In this document: positions 15,831 through 45,975 of the stretch, one piece after another
Numbering within the stretch: position 1 is the first letter of the stretch
Layout: each line of letters opens with the position of its first letter
DNA from: Marsupella aquatica
Taxonomy: Eukaryota; Plantae; Marchantiophyta
DNA length: 64,000 nucleotides
Assembly: GCA_973895155.1 (NCBI GenBank)
Contig: OZ316893.1
Location: 26,524,798 to 26,588,797 of the forward strand
Direction of reading: 5' to 3'
The notes under the pieces: model-generated
What the model saw: only the letters and a program-made list of their open reading frames with translations
Told to the model about the DNA's origin: nothing
Databases searched by the model: none
Translations under genes and position numbers: made by a program

Positions 15831-16488
15831 GGTTGCACTTTGTGTCATTAAGTGACTGAAGAGTTGGCGACCTCCAACGTACCAGTAGCTTACGGTATGT
15901 ATCAATCTTTGTTTTAACACAACTTCTTCTCGCGGCCTGCTATGGTGCAATTGTCGGAATTCCGGAATTTAGCAGGACCTGAGAGGCGCCCTTTGTATTT
16001 CTATGGCAACTGGAGTACTTTCAATTGTCATAAATAGTCCTAAACATTGTCGTAGATCTTGGTTTCCTTCCAATGTTCCATGACAGCCCACAATCGGGGC
16101 TTGACATGAGGAGACTAGCGCCCACTCACGCAGACTCTACTACAAAGTTTTCACACAATCAAAATTAATTTCACTCTGAAATCTGGCATGCTAGTGTGTG
16201 CTTCAATACCAATTTGCGTAGTAGGCAGGCTGTCAGCCCTAGACTACAGTAAGTAATGTTCAACTTGACACAAACACCAAATTGGCCTTCTCATTTTGGT
16301 TGCAAGCAAAAGTGGTTTACACATCAATTAATCTGAATGGAATATTTTGCTCAGGAGTTTAAGGACATTCTTTTGGATTGTAGGAAAGAAAGACAGCTTG
16401 CTCTAGACCAAGATCCAGCTAGCTACAGTAGCTCTTGACTTACATTTTAAGGAGACTCATTTTGAAGTCTAGGGTCAACCCTCCAAGA

Positions 16489-16954
16489 TGTTGTGCGCAT
16501 ACACATCGCTACACAACATACATCGCTTGTCACACATATCCAAGCATAGTCACAATCTAACGACACAAACCTCAGAGAATGATCTACAAATGGAACCCAT
16601 GTCCATACATGCCCAAAACCCACAATAATCTTCTTCAATAGTGCAAATCGAACAACGATCGGTGCTAATCCAACAACGATCCCATCCGACGCGATCACAC
16701 ATGTATGTCAAGCCCAACGCACCTTGTGCTTCAAGGAATCCACGTTACATGCACACAACTTGGTCAGCCACACCATAGCCACCAAGCTCATGCTCAAAGG
16801 CTCAACATTGAAAGATGAGGCCTTTGAGCCAACACAAGGGGATAACTATCCCTCACACCAACTCAAACTAAACACAGTGCTCATGTAGCACACATACAAA
16901 CCTCTATACCTAGATAGTACGATATACTTTACTACCACTCTAAATGGTGTGACA
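16489..16954 (-). repeat. 3' LTR of outer element (chimeric: U5 differs from the 5' LTR)
   Basis: 16626-16954 matches 36190-36519 with about 3 differences. 16489-16610 instead duplicates 16957-17078. Confidence 0.85.
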
Positions 16955-17073
16955 GCTGTCGTGCGCATACACATCGCTATACAACATACATCGCTTGTCA
17001 CACATATCCAAGCATAGTCACAATCTAACGACACAAACCTAAGAGAATGATCTACAAATGGAACCCATGTCCA

Positions 17074-17268
17074 TACATAATCGCCAGGATGGATCTTTCA
17101 ATGTAATCTTCTAATCCTCGTGCGATAACCTCCTCCACGAATAGTAGCATACCGCAAAGTATCACGATGTTGGGCAATAGCAAGGTTGTCAAAGGCCATG
17201 GGCATGACTCTCTCAAAAACTCGTGCCCTCTTTGAACAAACCTTGACCCAAACATCTGGATCATCCAA
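17074..17268 (-). pseudogene. C-terminal integrase fragment of outer element
   Basis: Translates LDDPDVWVKVCSKRARVFERVMPMAFDNLAIAQHRDTLRYATIRGGGYRTRIRR[12-nt insertion]FHPGDYV, a Gypsy integrase C-terminal region. It is truncated into the repeat at 17078. Confidence 0.75.
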
Positions 17269-17269
17269 A

Positions 17270-20200
17270 TGTAATCGCAGTATTAAAGTATCATTGGAAT
17301 ATACGAGGAATTTTCCGGTTATGCCATTAACTATTTTCCGGCAGACTTGTGGCCGATATGTTGGTCGTGCGGGTCTCGCCGCTTATTTAGCTAATTATAA
17401 AGCCAATGATGAATAGGGAAAATTCATAAGATCAAATTGTTATCGGCTGTCGACACCTCATTTTCATATTTAGGCTATTGATTACGAATAATTACCTTAT
17501 GAATGTGATACTGGATGGGCAGAGGTACGAGTACAACAGTTGCAGCATCACGACGAATAGCCGCTAGCAAATCTGGTTTCTACCATAGAGCAAGAAATAC
17601 GATGAAAAGGATGCAAGTGATGCTTGTCGACTAAAACGGTAGCCCATAGCTAACCAAGGTAGTTGGAGATCCCAGTCTCCCAAATGACCAACCTGCAAGC
17701 CATACTTACGCAATCCTCTCTTCACAGTTTGTCACTTGCCTATCCAACGATTAATACGTGCAAACCGTACTTTTCCTTGCTTAAACTGTTGGTATCGTAT
17801 TACGGGGTCGTGGAGGGACGCTATTTGGAGGATTTCCACACCTAAGGATGAGTATGTTTGATTCCGCTCCCGGAAGTGTACTTTTTGATCAAGTCTACCG
17901 ACTGGTCTCTCCGTTTTTGATCAAGTCCAAGGGACTGGTCCTACCATCTACAACTCATGCCCGCCGGGTGAGTGCTGTCACCACCCCCCTCCTCTCTTGG
18001 GCAAGCATACCAACATTTACAATAAGATTTGAACACTAGTGACAAGGGCAAATGTTTCCACAACGACACCAACCACACGCACTAGGGGAGGAAAACAAAC
18101 AACACAAGCAATAACAAGTGACGCACAAAATATTGGAACCTCAAGCCAAATCCATATCTCTTGGTGTTTCTCGTAACACATGCAAGGACAACCCGGCCTC
18201 CTGCCGTCTGCCCAACTCCTGCCTCCCGGGGACAAGTGCTACGTTCTCCACCTCACTACTCTGGCTTGAACTTCTCCTAATCGGTGCGCTACTCACAAAA
18301 GCTACTCCAAAGCATCCAAGTACTACGCTGAGTTCCCCCCTAACTACTTCGGGGCTCTCCCCCTAAATACCGAAAAAAACCACACCAAAACACCCCTCAT
18401 GGGGTCACAACGATGGCGGCTACCCTAGAGGCGCTGCTAAAACCCTGCACTAAGAAATCCCTAAACTAAAAAGGCATGCGGCACACACATGCTGCTAAAA
18501 CCCTAAACCCTAAACAAGGGGCCGACGGTGCCTTCGACGGCGCCCCAACTGTACACAATGAACCCTAAAATTGCAAGGCACCCCACAATGGCCGAAACTA
18601 GGTGCCCTATCAATTGTACTTTTGAGCTCACCCTTGGATAGCCCTTCTCCTCCTGATCCCGAATCACTCAGCCGCACTCACAACGGACATCGGACGCCTG
18701 AGTTATGGTCGTTTCCGTATCGCGAAAACACAATTTTGCTAGGCCATAACTTGCTCATCCTGGCTCCGTTTGAGGAGCGCCACCTCTTGTTGGAATCAGC
18801 TCCGCGAGCTCTTTCCAACAAGCCCGTGAGTGACCCCTCACAAAAAAGTTGGAAATCCAGAGGCCGTACAATCACATCCGTACGACTATCTACTCCTCCT
18901 CTTCTTCACTCTCGGTGCCCCGGCTTGTGCCCTGTGAGTGGGCCTCCTCTTCATCACTCACGGGAGTGAGTGCCACCTCACTTTTCTTCTTCTTTACCGG
19001 GGTACCCTTCGTGCTGCCGCTCCCTTGCTTCCTCAAAGTGGCCAAGGCCTGCCACGCCTTGATGTACCCCTCACCAATGGTGTCTTTCCATAGGGTAGCC
19101 TCTTCTCCGGACCGCAACTCCAACGGTAGAACTTGCCCTGTGGCCATGGGAGTCCCGGGGGTGACAGACCTGGGTGGCATCCCTGTACTGACCTGAGCCT
19201 CCCGTAATGATTTCCGTACCTCCCGGAGCTTCTTCTCCAAGCCCTTGCTCTTCTCCTGACTCTTCTTGGCTCCATCCAACAAGGGCCCATACTTCCCACT
19301 AACCTCCTTCACCACCATCTTAATAGCCTGGGAGATCAAATCCGGAGAAAGTGTGGAGCTAGGTGTGCCGGGGCTCTTCCGTTTCCCCAGACTTAAGGCC
19401 TCACTCCTCTTTGCTCGTGTCTCAAAGGCGGCCACCTGACTCCGTAGTGCTCCCACCTGGTTTCTCCACTCCACCACTTCTCCAGAATTCTGCTTCTCTT
19501 TGGCCAATGCTTGTCTCAATGCTCCCACCTCTTCTGCTTCCTTGGCCTTGGTGGACAAGGCTCCCTTCAAGTTGGAGATCTCTACGTGAGCTGCTTGGAG
19601 AAGCTTAACCTTCTCATGAATGGTCCCCTCCTTGGCCTTGATCACCTCCTTCAGAGACAGGGTACTCTGCTCTAACGTCTCTACTCTGGCTGTGGCGTGC
19701 TTGAGAGAATCTCTCAATGCGTGGACTGGCTTGAGTCCCTCATGGACTCCCTCTCTGAATTCCCGTAGCTCTGCCAGGTAAACATCCGGAATGTTGTAGA
19801 CCAGGGGTTTTTTTGGATCTCCCACGAGTGATTCAAGCCACTCCAACGTGTAGTCCTCATCCTGGTTTTCTTCTCCTCTATCGTCATCCCCACCAGCCGA
19901 TGATGATTCCTCCGTGAGCTTCCCTAAAACGGTAGTGGCAATACTCCGGATCTCCGTGGTGAGAGATGATCCCGTGTCTTCCTGTCCCGGGGAACCAATC
20001 AACCTTTCTGCCCTGGCCAATACAAATGACCCCATCAAATGTACAGCCCCACCTGGTTTCTCACTCCCGAGGTCAGCGGCCAACAGCTTCTTCAACCAGT
20101 AGTACCACCATCCGTACACATGGGCTGGGTGGTTCTTGATGTCCATAGCTACCACAAAATGCTCTTCATTCACCACCCCGGATTGCATGTTGCCAAGGAC

Positions 20201-22254
20201 CCGTTGATGAACCTTGGCCAGGAATCCCTTATACTCAACATCCTTGACAGCGGAAAGAGGGATGGCAGTGGTGGAGGTGGGATTAATCACCCAAGTGGCC
20301 ACCATCTTCAACGTGAGTTCTCCCCTAATGTGCCGAGGTGTGAATGAGAATTTCTGATTCTCCAGAAACAGCAGCCTAGCCAACTCCACATGGGGCACTA
20401 CACGTTTGAGACATTCAAAGTAGATTCCCTCCGTTCGTAACTCCATCCCGGCCTCAATGTCCCAGCTCTTCCCCGGGGGGATGGTAATCTCCACCTTCAT
20501 GAATTCTGTAACCCCGGTGGCTTGGAAAATATTCCGACAATCCTCCATCACCTTGGCGGAGGTCTTGGGATAAATTCGACAAAAAATCCTCCTACCCACT
20601 GGCGTGGAACCTGCTGCCAATCCCGTGCTCATCGTAGCTTCTCTCTCTTCTCTCTCCCTTGCAATCAAAGTCTCCACGTAGTCACGGTAAGCAGCCTTGT
20701 ATCTCCGAATGCGTGCCACACTAAACTCCGGTTGATCTAGCATTCATGCATCCCAAAATCAAATCAATCACCAAATCCTGTCACCCGTAGCAATGTCAAT
20801 TCCCTGGCCCGAAATAGCCCCCGTATCCCGATCAATCAATCACCTTCCTTAATTCCCTCAGAAGCCACTCCGTGCTGCTGCCGCTAATGCCCGGAAGAAT
20901 CATGCCAACAAGCCCCAACAATTGACCAAGAGAAAGAGCTTCCAAAATAATTGCAAAATGTGGAGAGAGCTTTCGGCAGAGCAAGAAGCCCCGCAAAGAG
21001 AAGGGAGGAAAAAAAAACGAAATACAAAGAAAAGGGGAGAAAACCCCTTTCTTCACCCTTCCCAACAATTCTTTGTCCCGGCTCCCCTCACGCCATACGC
21101 CCCAGCTCGCGGCCCTATGCAGGGCGCACACAGGCTGACACGCGGCTGCCGCTTCCCCGTTTCTCGCCCGCCGTGCCCAGTACCTGCCTCCCACTAGTCG
21201 GGGAGCATTTATTCCCCCCGTACCTCTCTGCCTTGGGCCTCCGCGCCCCCCCGGTTTCCTCCTACAGCCCCGCGCCCTCCTCCTGCTCGCGGGAGCCCTT
21301 TCCTGCCCCGGCTCGCCTCTTTACACGGCACGCGGCCCTATGCAGGGCGCACTAGTACCTCATTACTCCCGGCCTCAGCCTCCCGTCTATGTCTCCCGGC
21401 TGCCGTTTAGTCCCCCTCATGGGAGGGTACAGGGTGCCTCCCTTATCCCAGAGTGTTGCGCCCCTTTTTGGGGATTTAATTTTTTTTCCCGGCAACCTCT
21501 CTCACAGCCACCCCCGCTCACGGGCTCACGGGAGGGTTTAATACCCCCCCCCTTTACTCCTCGGCTGCGGCCCGGCTGCCCTCGCCCTGGCTCGCGCTTG
21601 CTCAGCCTGGGGATTCCACGTGGCGGCCCTAGGGCTGCCCCTTATGGGCCCCCAAGTGCTCGCCCTCTGCCAGGCCACTTTAAGGGGTATTTAACCCCCC
21701 CTCCGCGACCTTCCTGCACCGGCCTCCCTACTTAGTACTCGCGGTGCCCCTTAAGGGGGAATTTTAATTTCTCCCCCACACCTCGGCGCCTCGCTTCCTT
21801 CAGCTCGCGGGGCTCCTTCAAACGGGGGATTTAATCCCCCCCTTCCTTCTCCTGAACGCGGCCCTATGCAGGGCTCGCGACAGCCTCCTCCTTGTCCAGC
21901 CCGGCTCCGGCTGCCCATAAAAAAAAACTTCCCCCTAATCACACTGCCGGGGTCACCTCTACTCAAAAACTTCCTTGCTCCCTGTCCTGTTTTATTTCTT
22001 CTTCCCACCAACCTTGCTATTGAGTTCTCTAAAAATGGCCATAAAATAATGGGGAGTCCCCCAAAGGCAGGGCCCTCCGCCCAACATAATTGCAGAACAA
22101 TTAGGGGATAAAAATAAATACAGTTCTTCGGTCACAGGTGATAGAATTAACTTACAAAAAATTGAAAAAATGGTTATTTACAATGGTTATTTACACTGCG
22201 CAACACTACGCGACCAAGTTATTCGTGATTTTGAGTGACGGGGACCCCGTCACA
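17270..22254. mobile_element. 5-kb TGT..ACA-bounded insertion inside the outer integrase (LTR-derived fragment, no TSD)
   Basis: Integrase coding stops at AERVVQTV (22255) and resumes at 17268. The intervening DNA starts TGTAAT and ends GTCACA. Flanks ccaaa/cagtt do not match. Confidence 0.7.
18890..20743 (-). CDS. Hypothetical TE-associated protein with C-terminal coiled coil (617 aa)
   Basis: Long uninterrupted ATG-started ORF: globular N-half, acidic linker, heptad-rich K/E/A/L region and a basic KKKK tail. It lies within the 5-kb insert. Confidence 0.65.
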   Translation of the reverse strand: MLDQPEFSVARIRRYKAAYRDYVETLIAREREEREATMSTGLAAGSTPVGRRIFCRIYPKTSAKVMEDCRNIFQATGVTEFMKVEITIPPGKSWDIEAGMELRTEGIYFECLKRVVPHVELARLLFLENQKFSFTPRHIRGELTLKMVATWVINPTSTTAIPLSAVKDVEYKGFLAKVHQRVLGNMQSGVVNEEHFVVAMDIKNHPAHVYGWWYYWLKKLLAADLGSEKPGGAVHLMGSFVLARAERLIGSPGQEDTGSSLTTEIRSIATTVLGKLTEESSSAGGDDDRGEENQDEDYTLEWLESLVGDPKKPLVYNIPDVYLAELREFREGVHEGLKPVHALRDSLKHATARVETLEQSTLSLKEVIKAKEGTIHEKVKLLQAAHVEISNLKGALSTKAKEAEEVGALRQALAKEKQNSGEVVEWRNQVGALRSQVAAFETRAKRSEALSLGKRKSPGTPSSTLSPDLISQAIKMVVKEVSGKYGPLLDGAKKSQEKSKGLEKKLREVRKSLREAQVSTGMPPRSVTPGTPMATGQVLPLELRSGEEATLWKDTIGEGYIKAWQALATLRKQGSGSTKGTPVKKKKSEVALTPVSDEEEAHSQGTSRGTESEEEEE

Positions 22255-24607
22255 CAGTTTGTACAACTCTCTCTGCCAATCCATCTGCCTCAGGATGATC
22301 GCAAGAAGTAGTACGATGATCAATCAGAGCTTGCTCACACAAACCCTCAAAATCTCCACGGAATTCCGTGCCCTAATCAGTCAACACCTCAGCTGGTGCT
22401 CCAAAGTGACTGAGTACTCGATCCAAAAATGTGGTAGCCACTCCTCCACTAGCTTTATCTGGCAATGCCACTAGTTCAATCCACTTGGAGAAGTGCTCCA
22501 CCATAACCAAAACATACCGATTGTGACGTTGGGTAAGAGGCAATGGACCAGCAAAGTCCAAACTCCATCGATATCCCAAACCCATGATCGGCAGCGGATG
22601 CAACTGGGGAGTGGGAGCATTGAACGATGCTCGCACTTGATCACAAACCACACACTTAGCTATCAATTGCTGGACATCAGTGTGCATACCACGCCACCAA
22701 TACTGTGTGTGCAGCAAGCTATAAGTGCGCTTCACACCAAAGTGCCCTAACTCTTCGTGCGCATGTCGCACCAAATGTACTCGTTGTGACGGTTTTGGTA
22801 CAACCAATACCTTCCCATCACGTAGTACCCTCAAAAGATGGTTTCCTTCCCATCTAAATCTCTTGGCTCGTTGTAGAACCCTATCACGCTCCTTAGCATC
22901 AACATTGCCACCAATGGAGCCAACACGCAAATATTCCAACACTCTCACATCGTTGTGAATATCTTGCTGTCCAAAAACTACATCACCAACATCCATATTG
23001 GAAGACTCATCATCTCCTCTATCCAATGAAGTAGAGTCTACATATCCAGTACATACTGGCACCCAACAAAGGAAAGTAGACGCATGCCATCCTGGCACCA
23101 TCTCCTTATCCGTCTCACCATGCCATCGGGCTCCAATCTCATCCTCTTGACTGGTACATGGATTGCGGCTCAACCCATCCGCATCCAAATTCACTTTTCC
23201 AGGTCTATGCACAACCTGAAAATCATACTCCTGCAACAACAATGCCCATCGTGCAAGCTTCCCTCTAAGCTTGTCAGACTCCATTAACCACTTGAGAGGT
23301 TGATCATCAGTGATCAAGGTGAACAAATTACCAAACAAATAGCAACGGAAATGTGCCACAGCCCACACTGTTGCCAAACACTCTCCCTCATAAGAGCTAT
23401 ACTTAGCCTCTGCTGAATTGTTGGATCTACTGGCATACGCCACAACAAACTCACTCCCCTCATCATCCTTCTGAGTCAACACTGCTCCAAGCCCTACTCC
23501 ACTCCAATCAGTGTGAAGCTGAAATGGTCGCCCTGAAATGGGTCTTCTCAAAATAGGTGTTGACGCCAGTCTTTCCTTCAACTCTTGGAAAGCATGCTCC
23601 TGGTCGTCTCCCCAAATCCACTCTTGATCCAACTTAGTGAGTATAGTTAAAGGTTTAGCAAGTTGGCTAAATCCTTTAACATACCTCCTATAGTAGCTCG
23701 CCAATCCCAAGAATGCACGAACTCTGCTCACATCAGTAGGACGAGGAATCTGTGTAATGGCCTCCACCTTAGTTTGATGCACACCCAATCCTCCTGGGTA
23801 GATAGTGTGGCCCAAATACTCAATCTTCTCTTGAAAGAACTTACACTTGCCGGGATGGAGCTTCAATCCATGTTCCCTCAATCTCTCAAACACAATCTGC
23901 AAATGTCTCTGATGTTCTTCCACAGTAGAAGAATAAACCAAAATATCATCAATATAACATCTAACAAAATCCAAACCTGCAAGGATTCGATCCATGACTC
24001 TCTGGAACTCAGCTGGTGCATTCTTCAACCCAAATGGTAAGAACAACCACTGATACAAACGATCTTTGCCATAAGAATCAATCCCCCAGAATGTTGTCTT
24101 GGACCTGTCAGAATGCCTAATTGGCAACTGATGGTACCCCGCTCTGAGGTCCAACGAACTAAAAATCCTTGCATGCCCCACTGCATCAAAGATCTCCTCC
24201 GGTGTGGGCATGGCATATCGATCAGATTTTGTCTGACGATTAATAGGCCGGTAATCACCGCACATTCGCCTATCCGTGTAATTGCCATGTACATCCTTCT
24301 TGGCTGGCATCACTGTGGCAGATGCATACTCCCCATATGAAATCTCCACCAAACCAGCTTCCAACAAATCCTGAGTTCTACTCTGAATCAACGCCCTCTC
24401 CATATCACTATATCGGTATGGTCGTCGAAAGATTGGCGCATCACTAGCCAATTCAATCTGAATACCAGGGCCCTTCAATGTTCCCAAATCCTTCATGCTA
24501 AATGCAAAACAATTCCCGTAACTCTTCAAGAATTGATGCATTCGACGTCTCTCACCCCCTGTCAACTTAGGGCCAATTTGTGGCTCCCAACTCTCCATCA
24601 AAGCCAT
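22255..24607 (-). pseudogene. Gypsy RT-RNaseH-integrase (one premature stop, truncated by insertion)
   Basis: RRMCGDYRPIN, LDLRAGYHQ, PFGLKNAPAEFQ and YIDDIL (RT); HTDWS and YEGECLA (RNaseH); HEELGH..CVVC (zinc finger); SLDFAGP, TD*GTEF and GLAERVVQTV (DDE core). Confidence 0.95.
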
Positions 24608-24646
24608 GTTGTCTTCCTTTGGGGTTGAAGAGATAGTCGGTGGTTG

Positions 24647-26116
24647 CTATTTAGCAACAATTTGAGCAGTCCCAACCTGCTCGACAATCTGTCCTGCCTT
24701 GGCCAATCTTGCCATAGGTCCATGGACTGTCTGCTCGCCCCCAGCTGTGGTCGCTACTGTCTTAGTAGACCGCAAGCTCACCAATGGACGATCAGTAACA
24801 CCAAAAGAGCGCATCCGCAATTGTTCAGCTAATCCCAAGCTGATAATCCAAGTCAAGAAATTTAAATCCATGGCTTGACCAAGGACTTGGCAGCGTGAAC
24901 GCTCTGACACAGAAGCAACTACAGTAGTGCCAGTCAAAAATCCCATAGCACGCTCTCTTTCATCAGCAGTAGGTTCCACTAATTGTTGTAGAGCTGTATC
25001 CCATACAAGTCCAGGCCCACCTGCTCTGAATGCATATGAAGCAGAATGGCTCACAAAAGTGGGTAATGCATAACGTGGGCGACCAACTACATTGACCACT
25101 GCCAATGGAGGTCTGTCAGGCTGGGTCACACCTTGTGCACGACGCCCTGGATCCAAAATATCATCCACCACCAAGGTTGTTGAGCGAGGAATGCTATCAA
25201 ATGCTCGCTTTAACACCTCACAAGGTAACAAATTAGTCCACCACAAGCGTGGATGATGTGCACGAGAACCCACACGTGCAGCATCCAATAACACAGCAGG
25301 TCCAATCCAAGACTTAACCTAATGAACGCTGGCAACAAGTCGATGACGATCATCACCCAATAATGGCACATTCTCCAAAATGTAGGGAGGGGAATGTGTC
25401 TGATGCAACTGAAGATGACGCAACACCCGTAACATCTCCCAAAACAATGCAGATCTTGGATCATGAAGTCCATCTCCAACTCCAGCTCTAGATTGACCCT
25501 GACATGGCCAACCTGCAATCACGAAATCAATGGGGCCAACGCGATCCAGATGATCCGCCCCCAACAATGAAATATCAGTTGGTAATGCATGTTGATAACC
25601 ACGAACGGCATCCACTGGCAACAATTGTGGGTAGCGTTCGACCAACAATGCCACATGATGTAATGAGACTCTACGTGTTGTCTCATCAGTCTCCACATAC
25701 AAATAACGACGCACCGAAATGCCGGCTTGAAGAACGGCAGGCAATCCAGTGCTAATTCCACCGAATAAATCCAACAAACAAATACCCTCATGTGGATATT
25801 GCCATGCAATAGGAGTAGTATCCAGTGGTGAAAGAGTCACTGGTCCATTTGCAGTTGATTGCTCTGCTCCTGATTGCGGTGTGAAAGCATGACGCCATGC
25901 ATCATATATCAATCGGGCCGCACTTTGTGGCAAGGCCTGTCCAGTACCCCATATTGGTGTCACAACACTATCAATGGGCAATCCATGCATCAAGTGTTCC
26001 TCATGTGCCTCCTCCACTGTAGAAACATCTGCTGCATGTGCGTTACCCTCAATCAAATCATCAGTTCCAGTAATCAAACTACTAAATGCTGCCAAAGATA
26101 ATGGTGCAGATTTGGG
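24647..26116 (-). pseudogene. DNMT3-like C5 DNA cytosine methyltransferase domain within the pol polyprotein
   Basis: Motif I LLDLFGGISTGL, motif II YLYVE, motif IV IAGWPCQG, DPRSALF, motif VI ILENV, motif VIII AHHPRLWWTNL, motif IX ERERAMGF and motif X RCQVLGQAM. In frame with the protease upstream and RT downstream; stops at 25319 and 24647. Confidence 0.92.
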
Positions 26117-26121
26117 GCCTC

Positions 26122-27245
26122 TATGGTATAGCCGGAAGAATCCAAAGTGACACTTTTCACTTAAAGACCAAGGTTTCGATCCCTTTAAGAACAAAAAAGG
26201 AATGGATTGAATGATTGTAACTATTTTGAAGACTTAAGAGTATCACTCAAACCAAATCTTCAGACAAAAGAGAAATAAATGGATAAACTAACAAAATGAA
26301 CAAAAAAGATTAATTCCCAAGTCATGGATTATGGAAAAGCTTTTAGAACCAAGGTCCAATGGATTGAATCTCCACTGCCACTCCTTCAAAAAGGATTCTG
26401 GTTTTATCGTGTTAACAAGATTGCAACAAATCTCGCCTCAATTGCTCTTCTCCATCACCATGAAAATATAAACAGAAAGGGTAAATGCTCACCAACACCA
26501 AAGTAGCTTTCTGGTGACCGATACAACGATACTCACTAAAATGCCCTCAACATGGATAGAACTTTGGCAATACACAACTCCGATCTATCACTAGTGGGTA
26601 TGCCAAAGTAAGGGTAACGGTACTAACTATTCTGAAATCAAAATCTTGCTCCTTTTTATCCACATTTATCATTGAATTCCTAGCGATTCTTGACCCACAA
26701 GCAATCCTAATTTGAATTCATATGATCTTGGAAATTTGTAATGAAAAACTCAGGCACCAACAGGAATAAATTCATTACATCACAAAGGAAGTGTTTTACT
26801 TCATTCATAAATCATTCTCGAAAGCAATGATTACAAAGGAAGGAGGGAAACTTGCAAAAGTTTGCAACACTGAATACAAGCTTCACTGGAAAACAAAAAG
26901 GAAAACGATAATCTTATAGGTCTAAGTGGAGCATAAAAAGGGGAAATGAAAAGTCATGCCTTTTCAAAACCTAGAAAAAAGGTAATAAAAATTGAGTACT
27001 AAACTAAGGTAGAAAAAGATCACTAAATAACTAGGGTAAATGGGTAACAAAAATCTGTCTTCGAACTTCCGCCGAGTATCGTCCTTCATAAGTTTGGTCT
27101 CCATGGGACACCTCTCAGAAGCGTCCTTCATAAGTATTGTCAGTCAGGTAAAGTTGGGCATTTGGGTACCAAAATGCAATTAATTCATGAACTTTGCATC
27201 TTATTTCCATCTTCCATTGATTTTGCAAAAAATTCAGGTGTCACA
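26122..27245 (-). repeat. 3' LTR of nested element
   Basis: Direct repeat of 31471-32594; the terminal CA is mutated to TA. Confidence 0.95.
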
Positions 27246-27260
27246 TAGCCCTCTCCTCAA
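27246..27260 (-). other. Polypurine tract of nested element
   Basis: Minus strand reads TTGAGGAGAGGGCTA immediately before the 3' LTR. Confidence 0.7.
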
Positions 27261-27415
27261 ATGGCGCCGTGTCCTCACAAGCCATAATTCAGATGAACTT
27301 CAAATGTCTTCATAAAGTCTTCACAAAATTGACACAAAAAGAAGGAGGCTGATGTGGCATCTCACATAAATAAATCAGAACTGTAAAATGGGCGCTTGTT
27401 GACATCATCGAAGGA

Positions 27416-29164
27416 TCAAAGTCCAACTCCAAAACCGGTATCTAACAAAGGTGGGGTAACCTTGATAGAAGGTAACTGAGCTATCCATTGAATCTGTTGC
27501 CTTCCCTTGGAGGTCTTGCTTTTAATAGCCATAATCTTCTTGAGTTTACCTCGGAATTCCACTAAAGTGTCATCCTTCTGTTTTCTAATGATTACTCCGT
27601 CAGGGCCTACCCATGCAAAGTAAGCAAATGGCCACTTAAAATCTGGATGAGGTGGTGGAAAAGGGGCATAAACTCTGCGACAATGGTAAACCCAGTTCCA
27701 CATCTCAATAGACTCCAGCCGGCAGGATCTGAGCATATCAATGGGCAAAAGCAGATTTGGACAAGTGTAAGTAGCACAGAAGCTCTGTTGACGACCATGA
27801 ATAACTGGTGGGGAAACAGGTGGCAAAATTTGTCTTCTGCTGAAGGCAGCTTGATTCACCAACTCACTGAATCGATAATTCCATTCTGCTGGACTCCATT
27901 GATGCAACGTGAAAATCTGAGGTGGTACTAACTCTAGAGGTGAAGTATGAACAAAAGCAGGAGCTATAGGTACTGGTGCAACTGGAGTAGGCTCGACTTC
28001 TGGTGGTATTTCCTCAGCAGGAACCGATGCAGAAGGACTACAAGCTGCTGGTGGAGATGAATTGACAGGAATCTCTTTTGAGTCAGCATCAACATCAAAT
28101 GTCTCCTTCTCGGATAGATCCTGGTCCTCATCAACCGGTTCTACTTCTGTATGGCGTCCAGCGACGATGTCCAAATCTCGTCTTAATTCAGTCACAGCAT
28201 CAACCACATTCAGTCTAGTGCAATTCAAAATGTCACAAATCTGATCAAGTAGAGTCGAATCCGAGGGTGAAGCTTGAGAAGAACCAGGTTCATTTGATGT
28301 TGGCTTAGGTAGCTTTCGCTTCTTGAGCTTTGGTTTTTCAGTCGAAGGAAATAAGAACTCTAACTTAATCTTCTCTTCATCATTCAGACATTTCTCACTC
28401 CAATAGATATGAGCAATGTAAGAAGGAAGATAAGAAAATTTGATAATCTTCTAAGCCATCCTAGAAATCTGATTCTGCACCTGAGTATGAATGACATCGA
28501 ATAGAATCTGGGACCAATTGATCTGCTCCTTGCCTTCTAGAGAAACAACGATGGTGGTAGCCAAGGCTAGAGAAATCCTGGTTTGCTTCTCAAGTTTCAG
28601 AATAGGGATCAGAAATGCAAAAATAGGAGTCAGGTCAAGGAGGTCCAAACAATGCTCGATCATCCATCCGCTCCTTCTCTGCCACGATTGGGGCTGAAAC
28701 TTGCTCTCCACATAACCACGATGCTCGGTCTCTCCATCCAGCAATCCTTTCCCTTTCCTTGGTGTCCTATAAACTTTGGCAATCACTTTTAATGTCCAAG
28801 CTTCTGGATTGGCTCGAATGCCCTCATTACGCTTCCGCTTCTTGGTTCGAAAAGTGCTCTGCTCAGAACCATCGAGAATTGACCATGGCAACTTAATCAA
28901 GAAGTCGAGGCCCATCTTAGCCAGGTTCTCCGTTAGGCATTTCATACCTTCCTTTGTTTGAGGGTATTCTGGTCGAGGAGCCCGAGTTGTATATTTCTCT
29001 GTCATGACTCCACAAAACAGGTCCACTTCGCTGGCCGTTGTTCGCCAAACGCTTGAGCTTGCTTCCAATTTCTCCCGCAATTTCTGCACTCCACTTCTGT
29101 GTCTGGTCCTTGCGCTCCCTTTCCAACTTGAATCAGTCCAAACGCTCCACTCATCAGCCCGCAA
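27416..29164 (-). pseudogene. TE accessory ORF (~580 codons, one internal TAG), plant-transposon-protein-like
   Basis: ORFs 28451-29164 and 27416-28228 are in the same frame, separated by a single TAG at 28451. The pattern LIKLPW..INWSQILF..YLPSYIAHIY is reminiscent of Athila/Tat extra ORFs (by eye). Confidence 0.55.
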
Positions 29165-29166
29165 TG

Positions 29167-29652
29167 TCAGTTGAGGTGCGCGCCTTCCTCAGCCGCCATC
29201 GCCATATTGAAAGCTCGAGCAGCAGCTCCTTCCTCTTTATATTTAGCCAGGAATGCAGCCTTCAATTTTCCCCAATCCTGCTTGTCAGGGAAATGGTCGT
29301 ACCATTTTTGAGCACCTTTCTTCATCAAGCCTCCAAACAAGTTGGCCTTCTCAACATCCTGGCTTTGTCCATTGGATGCTGCCGCAACTTCAAACTCCTT
29401 GAGATACACTTTTGCATCCTCCTTTGAAGTGCCAAAGAACCTATCATATCTCACATTGTTTCGAGCCATGGTTGGTGTAGGAAAAATAGAAATAACAGGG
29501 AGGGCTGAACGAGTAGCAACAGGAAGTGTGAAAGGCTTAGCAAAAGGATTGGTAGTCCCTTGAGGACTCACACAACTCGAGCTGCTGGAATGACTGCTAT
29601 TTCCTGAGCTACTGCTCTTCTCGCTAGAAGATGAACTCCCTATTTCACTCAA
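29167..29652 (-). CDS. Gag capsid-like fragment
   Basis: RFFGTSKEDAKVYLKEFE..LFGGLMKKGAQKWYD..DWGKLKAAFLAKY fits the Retrotrans_gag pattern. Confidence 0.7.
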   Translation of the reverse strand: MSEIGSSSSSEKSSSSGNSSHSSSSSCVSPQGTTNPFAKPFTLPVATRSALPVISIFPTPTMARNNVRYDRFFGTSKEDAKVYLKEFEVAAASNGQSQDVEKANLFGGLMKKGAQKWYDHFPDKQDWGKLKAAFLAKYKEEGAAARAFNMAMAAEEGAHLN

Positions 29653-30719
29653 TGGATTCGCACCATCGGAATGTGAGAAAATGTCAGATTCTCTCCTTCA
29701 AGTGGTATCCCAATTAAGTTCTTTGGTGAATCAGGAATTCCTTTTGAGATAACAGATTCACCTTCTTCTAATTGATCGGATCGCCTTAAGGCACGGACAG
29801 TCTCTGAGCCCTTCCGTGACTTATGTGATCCAATCAACTTTGGGCCTGACCAAAGGTTGACGAACAGAGGTCTAGATGCTGTGGGCTGCTCCATAGACCC
29901 GCTTGAAACTCCCTCTTGGATGGATTTCACTTGCTTCCACATGCTTCCAGGCACAGGTGCTCCAGGTGTTTGAAACTCAGGAAGCAACGTTCGAGGCTCG
30001 ACTGCCTTCCTCGAAGTTTCAGGTCTCCCGGATGTTTTGCTCACTCTCTTGGCGATTGCTTGTTCGTCCTGCGACATGCCTTACTCCCAAATTTGGTTGC
30101 ACAAATAGAAGGCAAGTAGGCTAAATGATGGTTCCCTTCCATCATATCAGATCTAAACGGACTCTATCGATGGTGCCTGTCCAAGTCTTCCTTTTCAGAT
30201 CCTCCAGCTTGGAAAGGTGGCGGTGCTCAATCTGAACAGTTGCACCTCTCCAATTCTAAACAAAGGGTGGCACCCTTTTATATCCTCAAGCACGCACCTT
30301 TTTATATCCTCAAGCACGCACCTCTCGCTTGCTCCCGATTAACGCACCCTCATTCGCGACTCAACATTTCTTTGGGACGCATTCGCGTGGCGTCCTTCAT
30401 CCTTGGGATGCCTCTTCGTGGCGTCCTTCACAGTCATCTCTATCCTAAATCTAGCTTGACGTTATTGTACAATTTACTTAATTAATCAATAATTTTACTC
30501 CTCGACCTTCTTCTATTTCTTTGTCTAACTTTGTTTTAAACAGTCAATTTCAGATTTGGAATTCTGCCGCCCATTAGGTCATTAGGATCCCTAAGGATTC
30601 AAAACTTCAGAAATCAATATGTAAATTCATGGGTTTTGAGCTTAAGGAGGAGGCGAGGTGTGCCCTGACTGGTGGAATTTTCCAAAACAAAATTGATTGT
30701 TTTGATCTTACTGCAAACC

Positions 30720-31073
30720 CTAATGTATCCAGGTGCTATTTAACAAAATTGAGGGAAGGGAAAAAATCTGGGAATCCACAATTAAGAAATCTAGTTCAAA
30801 TGTCTCATCACCTATTTGGGTTCGAACATTTCTTACAAGCCCCTTGGGTCTAATTATCTCTCCATTGTTGATTCTCAGTCTTTCAGGAGTGGGTAGCAGT
30901 TGCCTAATACCCACTCTATCAGCGATTTCAGTGGTCATCAAATTGTTTTGGGATCCTTTATCCATAACTACATTGGACAATACAATTCCCCCAATTACCA
31001 CTTCAAATTCAAATTCAAATTCCTCTTCCATCTTAAAGAATTGATGATTGCTTATTGGAATTTGGCCGGACAC
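30720..31073 (-). CDS. Retropepsin-like aspartic protease remnant
   Basis: VVIGG..VVMDKGSQNNLMT..LRINNGEIIRPKGLVRNVRTQIG..LDFLIV matches the Gypsy protease fold pattern; the D(S/T)G motif is altered to DKG. Confidence 0.65.
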   Translation of the reverse strand: MSGQIPISNHQFFKMEEEFEFEFEVVIGGIVLSNVVMDKGSQNNLMTTEIADRVGIRQLLPTPERLRINNGEIIRPKGLVRNVRTQIGDETFELDFLIVDSQIFSLPSILLNSTWIH

Positions 31074-31446
31074 TTCCCTGGTTCTTTGAAATCCTCCAAT
31101 CTCTTTTGTGCTGACGCTCCCTGAATCTGCCTCTTTCCGCTGGTGACATCAGGCTCAACCAATTTCCTTAGCATGCCCACCAATAATCTTGGGGCGTTCT
31201 CTAAGGTATATGGATTTTTCTCAAACCTAAAATCCTTCCCACTTTCTGACGTAGACATGTTTGCATATGCTTCTTCTCTCAATTCTCCAAATCAAATAAG
31301 CCTCCTTGAAGCCAATACAATTCCCCTCAACTCCATATTACACTTCTCTCTTCACAAATCAAAACTTCTCCCCAGAATTTCAATTTCTCATCTTTTCAAT
31401 TTTTCAGCATTCATTGCCTGAACATCAACCTCATTCCTTCATCCGT

Positions 31447-31464
31447 TCCCCGGCAGCGGCGCCA
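31447..31464 (-). other. Primer-binding site, tRNA-Asp type
   Basis: Minus strand TGGCGCCGCTGCCGGGGA just inside the 5' LTR; the canonical Athila PBS is TGGCGCCGTTGCCGGGGA. Confidence 0.85.
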
Positions 31465-31470
31465 AAAAGA

Positions 31471-32594
31471 TGTGGTATAGCCGGAAGAATCCAAAGTGAC
31501 ACTTTTCACTTAAAGACCAAGGTTTCGATCCCTTTAAGAACAGAAAAGGAATGGATTGAATGATTGTAACTGTTTTGAAGACTTAAGAGTATCACTCAAA
31601 CCAAATCTTCAGACAAAAGAGAAATAAATGGATAAACTAACAAAATGAACAGAAAAGATTAATTCCCAAGTCATGGATTATGGAAAAGCTTTTAGAACCA
31701 AGGTCCAATGGATTGAATCTACACTGCCACTCCTTCAAAAAGGATTCTGGTTTTATCGTGTTAACAAGATTGCAACAAATCTCGCCTCAATTGCTCTTCT
31801 CCATCACCATGAAAATATAAACAGAAAGGGTAAATGCTCACCAACACCAAAGTAGCTTTCTGGTGACCGATACAATGATACTCACTAAAATGCCGTCAAC
31901 ATGGATAGAACTTTGGCGATACACAACTCCGATCTATCACTAGTGGGTATGCCAAAGTAAGGGTAACGGTACTAACTATTCTGAAATCAAAATCTTGCTC
32001 CTTTTTATCCACATTTATCATTGAATTCCTAGCGATTCTTGACCCACAAGCAATCCTAATTTGAATTCATATGATCTTGGAAATTTGTAATGAAAAACTC
32101 AGGCACCAACAGGAATAAATTCATTACATCACAAAGGAAGTGTTTTACTTCATTCATAAATCATTCTCGAAAGCAATGATTACAAAGGAAGGAGGGAAAC
32201 TTGCAAAAGTTTGCAACACTGAATACAAGCTTCACTGGAAAACAAAAAGGAAAACGATAATCTTATAGGTCTAAGTGGAGCATAAAAAGGGGAAATGAAA
32301 AGTCATGCCTTTTCAAAACCTAGAAAAAAGGTAATAAAAATTGATTACTAAACTAAGGTAGAAAAAGATCACTAAATAACTAGGGTAAATGGGTAACAAA
32401 AATCTGTCTTCGAACTTCCGCCGAGTATCGTCCTTCATAAGTTTGGTCTCCATGGGACACCTCTCAGAAGTGTCCTTCATAAGTATTGTCAGCCAGGTAA
32501 AGTTGGGCATTTGGGTACCAAAATGCAATTAATTCGTGAACTTTGCATCTTATTTCCATCTTCCATTGATTTTGCAAAAACTTCAGGTGTCACA
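31471..32594 (-). repeat. 5' LTR of nested element
   Basis: TG...CA ends; direct repeat of 26122-27245. Confidence 0.95.
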
Positions 32595-35096
32595 GCCTCC
32601 AATAGGTCCACTAAATCGCACGGGCAATTGACTCAATCGAGCATCTCCAGATTGCCAATCAGGTCGGTACGACACTGATTCATTCCAAAAATCAAGAACA
32701 AATCCCATAGGATAGAGAACTGTACATCCCACCAAGACATCATATGACTCAGCCTTAGTCAAAATAGCTCGAGCCTGGATCCGTGAATTATCCTTTGAAT
32801 AATCCTCCTGAATCCTAAGTTCAAGTGCTCGTCAAGTGATATGTTGTGTGGGTGTAGGTCCTCCCAATGAAGTTTGAATGGGAAAGGGACACTCCTCCAA
32901 GTCATCAGGACGCAGTCCCAATCCTCTTATCGCAGACTTACCCAACATCAAGGGCTGAGCACCAGTATCCAGTAACACTCGCTCTGGCTGGTATATTGCT
33001 CCAGAAGGCCCAACTAATCGGAAGATACCACTCTGATTATCCAATGATATGACGCTAGGTTTAAACCTAGTCCTCTCATAAGCAGGGCGTGCTGGTAAAT
33101 CTATCAACCTTGCCGCTGCTGCATGCCATGTTTCATTACTGGCAATAGGTGGATTCAACTCCACTACTTCAGAATTGGGCGTTGCTTCTGCACACGAAGC
33201 AACAGTTGGAGTGTCCTCGCATAATGTGGCCGCCAATCTGAACACCTCTGCTGGACTAACTCCCAATGTCAGCATATCCATAGCGGAAAATAATGGCGTG
33301 CGCACTATAGTAGTGGCCGCCCCCAACAAGGTACTTGTCATCCCTATCACAACATCACTTGAATCCGCCAACTTACCCCCACCTGGGTTAGTCCGAACCG
33401 GATTCATAGAGGTAGTTTGAACTGCCTCTAACAATGTAAACGATTGGGGAAGCTTTGTTTGATGATGAATATCCCCTCTCTGAGGATCCAACTCTACCAC
33501 TGCTCCTCGTGGCTCAAGGGCTTTAACTGCTCCTCGAGTCAAAGCTGCTGATGCATCAACATGCGCAGTGCCACACATAAATCCCATGGTGGCAAGATCT
33601 GCATCAGCTCCATAAGAGGTTGAAGCTCCATAGGATGTAGAAGCCCCATCACTAGCAGTAGGTCTAACTTGAGAACTAGCCATTGCAGCTAGTTGTTGCT
33701 CCAATTGAGCAATCTTTACATCCTTAGGATCTGTGGTAACGGTAGGAGCAACATCACCTCCTTGTCTTCCTGCATGTGGCATGCCTCGACCACGTCCACC
33801 ACCTCTACCTCCTCTTCCCTGATCATACGCACGTGGTCCTCCCCGTCGTAGTTCAGGATGAAGTACAAAACACCTATCTTTGGTGTGTCCAGAAACTCCA
33901 CAATGATCACACTGTCGTTGATCATGCGTAGATGCCCCTCCTTGCCCCCTATTATCCGGGCAATATCTTTGGGCATGATCCCCACCACAAGTCCAACATC
34001 CTGATTGTTGTCCAGCATAAGAAGGCACAAGTCTTTGACTAGTAGATTCCCGTGTTGTAGGCTTCTCTCTCTGGCTCTTACGTACAGTAGGTTGCGGTGT
34101 GGGCATCGATGCAACCTTTGGTGCTTCCTTGGCAAATCCGGAAGTCACCACCTTCTCATTCACCATATTGAGCTCAATGCGCTCAGCAAGTGCAAAAACT
34201 ATAGCCAATGTGGGATCTGAATCCCTCAATAGAGTGGCATCTCTCACTCTACGACGCAACTCCCTATCCAGAATTGCATACCAAAATTGGACCGCTTGGG
34301 CCTCTGTCACTCCTTGTGTGACCGTAATCAATCTTCGCATACGAGTGTATGCCTCACGTAGGCTCTCTCCAGTCTTGCGCTGGAACTCCTGAAGACCCTT
34401 CAACTTATCGGTTCTCACACCCTGGTAGTTCTGCTTCAATACTCCGAAGAACTTCATCACAGGGTTAAATGTTGGTGCAACTCCACTCCCAGCCACAATC
34501 ACACCGGTAGGAGTAGCGGTGGATGCTGATGGAGTGCCACTCTGGCTAGTGCTGCTAGAAGAAGCCACAGTTGTAGCAATGGGTTGGGAAACCGCACTTG
34601 TGCCATAAGTGATGGACACATAGTTTGGTGACCAATGTTGTCTCCATGCCTCAATATCCACTACATGAGCCTTTCGAAACTCATGGTAGTCATCCATGGG
34701 TGGCCCCTCCAAATGCTGAAACAACCCTTTCCAAGCCATGAAAGGTGTGAACAATGTGGCATTACGCATTGTCTGCATATCACACCACGTATCAAACTCT
34801 TGGATGAAATCATCCAAATCAATCGTGCCAACTGCACCAGAGTATCTCCTCGGTCCTTTCGTGGCCCCATACATCTCTTCCATATCCCACAACAATGGCA
34901 CAGTCACTTGATGTCGAGGAGAACTGGCTACTAAGTCCTCGTCAAAATCACTATCTGAAACCCCACTTGTAACCACTAACAATGTCGTCGGCCGAAATTG
35001 CACTCCACTCCGAGTGAAACCAGACCGTCGTCCCTCGGGTAGCCCCGTATCACCAGAGGACTCTGTGATGACTAATTTTCCCTAAATGGTCACCAT
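32595..35096 (-). pseudogene. Gag-protease portion of outer polyprotein
   Basis: ATG at 35096 (MVTI*GK..FTRSGVQF), capsid-like region, two zinc knuckles (CWTCGGDHAQRYC, CDHCGVSGHTKDRC) and protease VLLDTGAQ..YDVLVG. Stops at 35082 and 32832. Joins in frame to 26116 across the GCCTC TSD (..IGG|PKSAPL..). Confidence 0.9.
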
Positions 35097-35127
35097 CAAC
35101 TCACCACTATCAATAATCAACCGATTG

Positions 35128-35528
35128 GCGAAACGGTGTTCCGCGGATACCAATCACTCAATCACGGAACGGTGTTCCGTAATGCATCACCACCAATCTC
35201 CAAGACAATTGACGAAACGATGTTCCGTCAATTGCTTAGTTGCGGGACAATGTTCCGCAACCAACCCTTCTTCACAACGCAGACGAGATGTGTAATGGGG
35301 CAGACCAATCTTCAATATGCACCCACAACGGAATAGTGTTCCGTGGAAAACCAATCTTCCCAAAATTATCACAACAAAATGGTAATTTGTACCCGATCGT
35401 TCTCCAATATGCACTCACGATGGAACAGTGTTCCGTGGAAGACCAATCTTCCCAAAACTACCACGACGGAACGGTGTTCTGCGGTCAACCAATCTCCAAT
35501 ATGCCCTCTCAACGGAACGGTGTTCCGT
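35128..35528. repeat. Array of eight 17-bp hairpin motifs (RCGGAAC-NNN-GTTCCGY) in the retrotransposon leader
   Basis: Copies start at 35128, 35164, 35212, 35242, 35328, 35420, 35466 and 35512. Confidence 0.85.
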
Positions 35529-36032
35529 GGAAGACCTTCACAACCCTATTGCTGCGAAAACCCCGCCGCAATTCCCGGACAAAGTCACTGTTCCCTCACT
35601 TTGTCGTTTTCCTTGTGCCCTAGGTCGCCGCCGCACCTCGCCTCTCCGCGGTGCACTACGTCGCCTCTCCGCGGTGCGCTATGTTGCCGTAGGGGACACA
35701 ATTCGTCAACCTTCAACATCACTTTCTTCGAAGGAATGGACTGTCCGTCAACATCAAACTTGATGAATCTCAAATCCGTAACATACAACTTCAACGATCA
35801 ACCCCCGATTGGAACCATCCCCAACCAGAATCACAAACAATCACAAGTCCGACCAACTTGCCTTCACAAAACCGCAGCGAATACTCTTAGCAATCCGCGC
35901 ATAACAATCGACAGCAACTTCCGATCATCGACCGCACATTCAGTCCTCCAACATGCTACAATGTCGATCGATGCAAATTGCAACTCCAAACGCGCAACTC
36001 AACAACTCAAAGCTCCGCATCCACTCGAGCTT

Positions 36033-36043
36033 TCTCAACACCA
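36033..36043 (-). other. Primer-binding site, probably tRNA-Leu
   Basis: Minus strand TGTTACA-AGT-TGGTGTTGAGA. The 11-mer is complementary to the ..UCUCAACACCA 3' end of plant tRNA-Leu(AAG), recalled from memory. Confidence 0.65.
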
Positions 36044-36046
36044 ACT

Positions 36047-36519
36047 TGTAACAGATCGAGATACCAGCGATCCATTCAACAACAAAACCCGATCCGAGAT
36101 ACCACGAATCGTCAACAACAAAACTTCAACGAAATCGAACTTCTATTTGCACGATCCGTACATCAGAATTTGAAGCTGATCTTTCAATGTAATCTTCTTC
36201 AATAGTGCAAATCGAACAACGATCGGTGCTAATCCAACAACGATCCCATCCGACGTGATCACACATGTATGTCAAGCCCAACGCACCTTGTGCTTCAAGG
36301 AATCCACGTTACATGCACACAACTTGGTCAGCCACACCATAGCCACCAAGCTCATGCTCAAAGGCTCAACATTGAAAGATGAGGCCTTTGAGCCAACACA
36401 AGGGGATAACTATCCCTCACACCAACTCAAACTAAACATAGTGCTCATGTAGCACACATACAAAACCTCTATACCTAGATAGTACGATATACTTTACTAC
36501 CACTCTAAATGGTGTGACA
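36047..36519 (-). repeat. 5' LTR of outer element (473 bp)
   Basis: TGTCAC...GTTACA on the minus strand, followed by a PBS; the first 330 bp are repeated at 16626-16954. Confidence 0.8.
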
Positions 36520-37956: not shown

Positions 37957-38290
37957 CAGCTTTTTACTAACCTGTTCCCCAAATTACCCAATATTGCTAA
38001 TGTGTCCCCAAAACAAAATTAATTATCAACATCTTCCCCATTTTGTATTTGGGTTAATATTAACTTGTATACGAGTTCCCATTGCCATGTGGCAAGTTGC
38101 TACTGGATAGCCTGAGCCCACTGCGACACCCCTTGGCCCCCCCCTTCCTTGGCCCCACTTGGCTACGGGAACCCATATACGAGTTAATATTAACCCAAAT
38201 ATAAAACAGGGGGCAGGTTGATAATTAATTTTGTTTGGGGGACATGTTAATAATATTGGGTAGTTTAGGGGACAGGTTAGTAAAAAGTTG
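37957..38290. mobile_element. Foldback/MITE-like element with ~130-bp inverted arms
   Basis: ctttttactaacctgttcccc..caaaattaattatcaac..tatttgggttaatattaact is mirrored by agttaatattaacccaaata..gttgataattaattttg..ggggacaggttagtaaaaag. Confidence 0.8.
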
Positions 38291-45814: not shown

Positions 45815-45975
45815 ATTAGTTTGGGGGATAGGTTAGTTTTTTTGTTTTTGTTGGAAAAAATGAGGGCATAGGGCCCCATCATATACCACACGGAGGGACA
45901 AAAGCCACCCCGGTAAAGGAAACAACGGCGCCCAATGCCACGGGAGCAACCCGCCCAAAACCAACAAAACAACTA

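Follow-up and report, generated by a model that had tools for sequence, protein, structure and literature searches.

Cytosine methyltransferases of the DNMT3 type within Gypsy retrotransposons have been described in Klebsormidium nitens (KnitGypsy-Dnmt3), where, according to the published account, the domain evolves with Ka/Ks < 0.2 and the enzyme gave no methylation in yeast, a result that its authors called inconclusive (PMC5890265). Methylation of cDNA was put forward as a hypothesis by de Mendoza et al. 2018 in the same account (PMC5890265), and what a retrotransposon gains from a cytosine methyltransferase of its own has been a question since then, the sole Gypsy-borne enzyme tested having been silent in yeast. 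The enzyme of SymbioDIRS-Dnmt3 is described as methylating CG in yeast (PMC5890265; bioRxiv 10.64898/2026.05.21.726589). Later literature, in its accessible parts, cites only streptophyte or dinoflagellate cases and gives no detail, and in titles and the beginnings of abstracts (closed journals, figures and preprint supplements aside) we found neither a description of such elements in bryophytes or chlorophytes nor one of a stop codon after the methyltransferase. The element reported here is of a kind already published (KnitGypsy-Dnmt3, 2018). It occupies positions 16489..36519 on the minus strand of the window, i.e., the whole stretch of 64,000 nucleotides of Marsupella aquatica DNA that was analysed, including three later insertions, and is flanked by a 4-bp target duplication (36520-36523 and 16485-16488).

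Two of the marks of Ty3/Gypsy elements are present, namely the order Gag-PR-RT-RH-IN with a DDE integrase, as recovered by Pfam scans of the ORFs, and TG...CA ends with a short target site duplication (TSD); the third, two full LTRs around the coding region, is replaced in the window and in nine distinct relatives by an arrangement that we denote A...B-A-B. The coding region opens with Gag and aspartic protease as the 5' part of ORF1 (32600..34883, minus strand), whose N-terminus matches the Marchantia proteins P0002 and P0003 and in which the protease match is weak (Asp_protease_2, E 0.0098). Nested insertion 1 follows (26122..32594, minus strand), an LTR element with 1.12-kb LTRs of 98.9% identity and the 5-bp TSD GCCTC, and downstream of it lie the DNMT3-like C5 cytosine methyltransferase domain of 327 aa (24830..25810, minus strand), a conserved in-frame stop with its hexamer (TAG CAA CCA, 24641..24649, minus strand) at the end of Gag-PR-MTase, which is a predicted readthrough site, and the reverse transcriptase, RNase H, integrase zinc finger and integrase core (22255..24646, minus strand; identified by Pfam and 65% identical to the ORF of the intact relative L027). 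The integrase families rve and H2C2 are both present in the ORFs of the window and of L027. The integrase gene is split by nested insertion 2 (17730..22254, minus strand; 4525 bp, TG...CA, 5-bp TSD), and its remainder (17071..17729, minus strand) carries a frameshift and an insert of ~255 bp and lacks, by deletion, the PHD finger and polypurine tract of the relatives.

Subtracting insertion 1 together with one copy of its TSD (6478 nt) restores one reading frame that joins Gag-PR to MTase-RT-RH-IN over 6349 nt, or ~2116 codons, and ends at the second insertion (22254). The common frame from Gag to integrase claimed in the initial annotation is thereby recovered, but it is interrupted by four stops, at 32834, 25321, 24649 and 22375, of which that at 24649 is inherited and the others are premature, lying in Gag-PR (32834), the methyltransferase (25321) and the RT-RH-IN segment (22375). 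The integrase gene has in addition been damaged by the 4525-bp and ~255-bp insertions, the frameshift and the loss of its 3' end. The A repeats are 99.1%, the B repeats 96.8% and the LTRs of the nested insertion 98.9% identical, which marks the element as recent; the window copy is dead but recent, and the youth ascribed to it earlier stands with that qualification.

Several further features of the window were noted. Insertion 1 (26122-32594, minus strand) has no recognisable reverse transcriptase, its longest frame being 344 aa, and two in-frame ORFs separated by one stop (29188-28451 and 28450-27416) have no Pfam match; its primer site we take, from its look, to be of the Athila type. Insertion 2 (17730-22254, minus strand) has no internal repeat pair, resembles a very long solo LTR and contains an open 617-aa coiled-coil ORF (20743-18890) with weak atlas leads at 0.75-0.76, PF04195 being at 0.75. 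The third insertion, of ~255 bp, lies in the integrase gene at window ~17270-17525, and the 5' leader contains 46/92-bp tandem repeats (35290-35536). Outside the element there are an LRR receptor-like kinase ORF (57144-59471, plus strand), a protein kinase ORF (4039-5442, plus strand) and a MITE-like inverted repeat at 37957-38290 with a second, partial copy at 45732-45837. The LRR kinase and the relatives of the element are the basis on which a land-plant genome, as in the initial annotation, is assigned.

The motifs of a C5 methyltransferase that had been reported in normal order between protease and RT were all found again on the minus strand (DLFGG, YVE, GWPCQG, ENV, AHHPRLWWTN, ERERAMGF, LGQAM), with the D of DLFGG at 25774 and the cysteine of GWPCQG at 25504-25502, in a stretch of 489 codons (26116-24650) that has a single internal stop (25321). 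The Pfam check suggested in the initial annotation was positive for the 5' half (PF00145 DNA_methylase, E 2.3e-10, 40.8 bits with a curated cut-off of 22), while the 3' half by itself had no Pfam match. Likewise, the proposed likeness to DNMT3 was borne out by PDB, profile, Foldseek and structure comparisons, in all of which DNMT3 ranks first. The best PDB match of the single sequence is DNMT3A (4.5e-10), and a 17-row profile matches DNMT3A at 2.5e-23, compared with 1.2e-10 for the best non-DNMT3 chain, 3e-7 for DRM2 and 4e-7 for HhaI. An AlphaFold2 model from a 61-row alignment (pLDDT 95.2), used in place of a single-sequence fold with pLDDT 34, has DNMT3A as its top Foldseek match (E 5.6e-21) and superimposes on DNMT3A/B/C with a VIA Z of 29.3 and rmsd 2.5 over 270 aligned residues, the best non-DNMT3 row reaching Z 25.3. 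Of the 132 domains that span 280 or more profile positions, 130 retain the catalytic Cys and 131 the Glu of ENV; as to the pair of Arg in motif VIII, 127 domains have the first and 129 the second. The window copy has His (25255) in place of the first of these Arg. The roles of these Cys, Glu and Arg residues are presumably those in DNMT3A and M.HhaI. The motif set that characterises C5 cytosine DNA methyltransferases (I-X, Cys, ENV Glu, RxR) is complete at the family level, and by sequence and modelled fold the domain is DNMT3-like, with unpermuted motif order, and not DRM. Viral contigs searched with the domain gave only 30 phage-type matches of 25-47% identity over short stretches.

Word-limited protein searches, in each of which ~8000 candidates were scored, returned at least 78 longer relatives and at least 63 of similar length. 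Among the matches listed the closest protein is P0080 (86% identity), and the named relatives belong to Marchantia polymorpha (up to 72% over the domain), Calypogeia fissa, Riccia sorocarpa, four Sphagnum species and Cymbomonas, the nearest of them being bryophytes; no row named Klebsormidium was among the matches listed by the methyltransferase-protein and RT searches. The independent RT search, for which RT was extracted from 116 of the best 120 of 939 matches, added Closterium, Haematococcus and Tetraselmis, and among these best 120 the methyltransferase is carried by all seven RTs of at least 50% identity and by 33 of the 35 of at least 43%. A quick RT tree with 154 rows, for which sampling was enriched for methyltransferase carriers and included no labelled lineage members, has a branch of SH-aLRT 98 between 56 Gypsy RTs that lack a methyltransferase and the other 98 rows, all but two of which have the domain; among all labelled rows, the methyltransferase match is only weak in P0185 and P0200.

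Where both domains were available (84 elements), FastTree phylogenies of RT and methyltransferase have 18 strong splits in common (of 25 and 27) and no conflicts, and their patristic distances correlate with a Spearman coefficient of 0.65. The methyltransferase lies between RNase H and integrase in 61 of these 84 elements. In each tree a single branch sets these 61 apart from the rest, and by RT they are nested within the PR-RT type, with a support of only 82-92. This subclade (P0036, P0075, P0197 and 58 more), which includes Haematococcus and Cymbomonas, keeps the catalytic motifs. By the Nei-Gojobori method, 13 of 15 attempted pairs gave a measurable methyltransferase dN/dS, several of the divergent ones having a dS near saturation. 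Six of the seven measurable pairs with dS of at least 0.25 have values of 0.10-0.13 (L027/L028, 0.13 at dS 0.26; five divergent pairs, 0.10-0.12) and the seventh, window/L027, has 0.24; in six close, decayed pairs the values are 0.27-0.69, with up to 0.18-0.47 for their RT.

These alignments and trees show that the methyltransferase is under purifying selection throughout the family and is inherited together with the RT. The broken domain of the window copy might be taken as the relic of a host DNMT3 gene that was captured neutrally or only once, but conservation from chlorophytes to bryophytes, dN/dS ~0.1, the congruent trees and the domain's presence in 33 of 35 RTs (at least 43% identity, best 120 of 939) contradict this, and we regard such a capture as virtually inconceivable. 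The comparison of family copies and dN/dS proposed at the outset thus answers in favour of a family-wide domain, and of its DNMT3-like identity and family-wide conservation, taken jointly, we are nearly certain. Two entries labelled as bacterial, P0098 and P0060 (Obscuribacterales, Minisyncoccia), belong to the same family and are probably contaminated bins. Outside the C5-methyltransferase clade, P0234, P0235, P0240, P0245 and P0247 are Gypsy polyproteins that combine PF05869 (adenine methylase) with a PHD finger, and may be DAM-LTRs of a 2026 preprint (bioRxiv 10.64898/2026.05.21.726589).

The methyltransferase had been placed inside a continuous Pol in the initial annotation; in this subfamily it is instead the C-terminal domain of a Gag-PR-MTase ORF that ends in a conserved stop. 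Many protein relatives terminate 103-174 residues past motif IX, and P0080 and the window ORF have an identical C-terminal end residue. The best 80 of 313 confirmed metagenome loci were fetched, and at the 33 of these to which a 93-nt probe aligned (identical insertions not deduplicated) the codon after the methyltransferase is TAG in 23, TAA in nine and TAC in one, with CAA directly 3' of it in 32. Damage as the origin of the stop at 24649 was rejected, since 32 of the 33 alignable loci (best 80 of 313) have the inherited stop. Because the stop at 24647-24649 is inherited, the methyltransferase closes a Gag-PR-MTase ORF and there is no single uninterrupted ORF from Gag to integrase.

The sequence TAG CAA CCA (window 24649-24641) fits CAR YYA exactly, which after UAG is the readthrough signal of TMV and is reported to work with UAA too in plants (PMC2754532). 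Exact fits also occur in more distant loci, namely L027 and L028 (TAG CAG TTA) and L032 (TAG CAA TCA), and the commonest hexamer of family 1, CAA CCC, agrees at five of six positions. In L027 a 7.25-kb frame contains exactly one stop, with PR and methyltransferase before it and RT-RH-IN-PHD after it. From this codon context we consider it probable that RT-RH-IN is made by readthrough of the stop. No conserved RNA structure stands out 3' of the stop (z -0.27 to -1.09 in 4/4). That RT-RH-IN is instead translated by re-initiation, or from an RNA that is separate or spliced, with the stop as a real terminator and the methyltransferase still at Gag level, appears quite unlikely to us: the window, L002, L028 and L032 do have an AUG within the 14 codons that follow the stop, and the gag-pol junction of Candida Tca2 is described as having promoter activity and no readthrough by itself (PMC2194720), yet each of the four subfamilies with DNA has one and the same frame on both sides of the stop and CAR as the +1 codon, three of them have the complete CAR YYA, and the intact L027 has no AUG for 116 codons past the stop, the first one being at residue 117, inside RT. 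With or without readthrough, the methyltransferase is part of the abundant upstream ORF in this subclade. The stop is lacking in the family 2 loci L044, L047, L056 and L072, where the methyltransferase runs directly into RT, and P0035, P0159, P0192 and many other single-ORF proteins likewise have no stop between the two, so a methyltransferase at Gag level is not required by the whole lineage.

The termini of the element are made of split repeats. Repeat A1 at the 5' end (36190..36519, minus strand), which begins with TGTC, is 99.1% identical over 330 bp to repeat A2 (16626..16954, minus strand), and repeat B1 (16957..17078, minus strand), whose 5' part is lost and which ends in CA, is 96.8% identical over 125 bp to repeat B2 (16489..16625, minus strand), the 3' end of the element, also ending in CA, giving the layout A1 (36519-36190) ... 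B1-GC-A2-B2 (17078-16489). The LTR repeat of ~1% divergence proposed initially is therefore confirmed as a repeat (330 bp at 99.1%), but the A repeats were rejected as LTRs, being one half of the split repeat A...B-A-B. Among the best 80 of 313 loci, the full 3' arrangement is also present in L017, L035, L042, L047, L049, L050 (= L051), L056, L077 and L080, and eight loci (L008, L012, L018, L020, L022, L034, L044 and L072) have a single terminal B and neither A2 nor B2. The element ends are TGTC and ACA, and nine of ten elements with both flanks (best 80 of 313; L049 fails) have a 4-bp TSD, for which reason a 5-bp TSD was rejected. As separate observations, L018 (6266-14905) is A...B with a 4-bp TSD and no repeats whatever, and L019 (6343-6455) and L025 (6536-6648) have an inverted repeat B upstream of gag.

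No primer site of the tRNA type (TGG) was found after A1. A putative self-priming primer-binding site (36179..36190, minus strand) is recognised by its complementarity to the interior of A1, where 12 nt (36369..36380, minus strand), the predicted RNA 5' end and self-primer, are the perfect complement of 36190-36179; none of 150 control windows had a match as long. Eight of ten elements (best 80 of 313) have 10-17 nt complementary to a site 140-255 nt into A, compared with 0/150 controls, L056 and L080 failing, and the self-complementary sequences differ among the three families. In family 2 the predicted RNA 5' end lies ~30 nt past a TATA box, and in relatives a polypurine tract directly precedes B1. 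The 12 nt of this primer-binding site also recur, without mismatch and in frame, within the integrase gene (17093-17104, minus strand), where the copy adjoins an 8-nt match to the A end directly before the PHD/PPT deletion; it possibly stems from a mis-directed strand transfer.

The B1-A2 junction (CA-GC-TG, 16947..16963, minus strand) is a predicted internal integrase attachment site, and its spacer is 2 nt long in 12 of 12 junctions among the best 80 of 313 loci (GC 4, AC 4, AT 2, GT 1, TC 1), variants on account of which a perfect palindrome was rejected. In family 2 the A2-B2 join varies by 1-2 nt, and its gains and losses (L049, L077, L080) fit fresh end-joining; in this family the B1 and B2 of one element resemble each other more closely than those of different elements do, with no such difference in family 1. 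The mirror form A-B-A...B was absent, B preceding A1 at none of 24 distinct 5' ends (best 80 of 313 plus the window; 25 loci minus two duplicate pairs, plus the window, with L046, L049 and L065 left out for short flanks and L052 and L020 as rearranged). Such forms would be expected if two-repeat circles were cut at random, and symmetric cleavage was rejected on this count; the proposed integration route is thus not symmetric.

Standard LTR reverse transcription with these signals, primed from the RNA's own 5' end in the manner of Tf1, would yield cDNA with the terminal repeat B-NN-A at both ends, and the integrated form would then require that the ends be joined and that the DDE integrase cut the internal CA-NN-TG junction. 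A two-repeat circle would give A-internal-B-A-B, and a one-repeat circle or later recombination A-internal-B. Taken together, the split repeats, the putative self-priming site, the CA-NN-TG junction and the 4-bp TSD point to integration through the internal junction of end-joined cDNA, a route that we favour with moderate confidence. Copying as in PAT/Ngaro elements, in which the RNA would extend into B2 and template switches would produce a linear A...B cDNA with no cut at an internal junction, has the repeat order of the split-direct-repeat DIRS elements in its favour and would account for the missing A-B-A...B forms. We consider it rather unlikely, given that a tyrosine recombinase, the mark of DIRS/PAT/Ngaro elements, had no family match in Pfam scans of the window ORFs and the intact L027, that the polypurine tract before B1 and the primer site after A1 are placed as for a B-NN-A terminal repeat, that the 2-nt spacer is constant, and that in family 2 B1 and B2 have element-specific states in common in each of their halves.

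Internal-junction integration is one part of our reading as a whole, to which we incline without strong conviction: a dead copy of a Gypsy-type element whose methyltransferase ends the Gag-PR frame, would be packed at near-Gag levels and would methylate cDNA. Since the methyltransferase lies upstream of the presumed leaky stop, it would be produced in bulk alongside the coat protein and packed into the particle at near-Gag copy number, with occasional readthrough supplying RT-RNase H-integrase-PHD. In the weakest step, the released methyltransferase would methylate the cDNA before integration, so that the new copy would arrive pre-marked like host heterochromatin and be either protected or self-silenced. 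We hold this predicted methylation of cDNA in the particle to be somewhat the better supposition. CpG depletion in the element (0.49-0.54) equals that in its flanks (0.50-0.59), which leaves the sequence with no extra footprint of methylation. An active enzyme might instead have as its main substrate RNA or chromosomal DNA, be it that of integrated copies, of competing elements or of host loci; a protein made in Gag amounts is largely in excess of a single 9-kb cDNA, the relatives' integrase has a PHD finger, and DNMT3 is described as the de novo enzyme of mosses (PMC6453930). This alternative carries a low probability in our view, because Gag and methyltransferase form one chain in which the domain sits between long linkers, which would favour co-packaging, and because the domain changes its place in the polyprotein yet remains part of it. 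More speculative, and doubtful, is the wider idea of an ancient green-plant superclade with self-priming, integration by a DDE integrase at the internal, att-like CA-NN-TG junction of end-joined cDNA and, in bryophytes, leaky-stop loading of an active DNMT3-type enzyme in capsid stoichiometry, in which cDNA methylation would be protective and may choose which of the two junctions is cut.

Close relatives (~70% identity) occur in Marchantia polymorpha, where genetics and methylation mutants are available, so that the question of what the enzyme does for the element can be put to the test. Given the conserved stop, a particle is predicted to hold far more of the enzyme than it would of a Pol domain. 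The layout of the termini suggests an unusual integration route and probably conceals such elements from LTR finders. REXdb is described as compiled with LTR-FINDER, a program that requires paired LTRs (Neumann et al. 2019, PMC6317226), so that A...B-A-B elements would likely be missed or mis-bounded in it. Furthermore, ORFs of the element are deposited as hypothetical proteins or as DNA methyltransferase genes and can inflate DNMT counts.

Among known systems, the sites of the TMV type (UAG-CAR-YYA; PMC2754532) and the Tca2 gag-pol junction likewise have an in-frame stop between structural and replicase ORFs, and the 3' stop context of the TMV sites recurs in our element, for which readthrough is predicted; unlike in TMV and Tca2, the upstream product, which is the abundant one, has a DNA methyltransferase at its end. 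Tf1/sushi elements and plant Tcn1 are described as having no tRNA site and a primer site that complements the predicted RNA 5' end; the present element likewise lacks a tRNA site and has a putative primer site of this kind, but they have an ordinary LTR pair and a chromodomain in place of split repeats, a methyltransferase and the PHD finger of the relatives (PMC6317226). Foamy virus integrase is reported to cleave palindromic two-LTR circle junctions (PMC1180852), and a DDE integrase and a CA..TG junction in continuous DNA are common to both systems, the cut being predicted for ours; in foamy virus this junction forms at the cDNA ends, whereas in the present element it is encoded internally and would be the obligatory route (PMC1180852). 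SymbioDIRS-Dnmt3, SymbioLINE-Dnmt, EpiLTRs and DAM-LTRs are, as here, retroelements with DNA methyltransferases (PMC5890265; bioRxiv 10.64898/2026.05.21.726589), but by their published descriptions they belong to other retroelement orders or DNMT clades, the EpiLTR DNMT being sister to DNMT4. The closest system is KnitGypsy-Dnmt3, and the likeness to Klebsormidium elements noted in the initial annotation agrees with its published description: both have a DNMT3-related domain, intronless and under purifying selection, as part of a Gypsy polyprotein, and both combine DIRS-like repeats with Gypsy domains (PMC5890265). The accessible KnitGypsy text makes no mention of self-priming, a 4-bp TSD or a CA-NN-TG junction (PMC5890265). 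Compared with KnitGypsy-Dnmt3 as published, the present element is bryophyte-related, has relatives in chlorophytes and carries a conserved stop that parts Gag-PR-MTase from RT.
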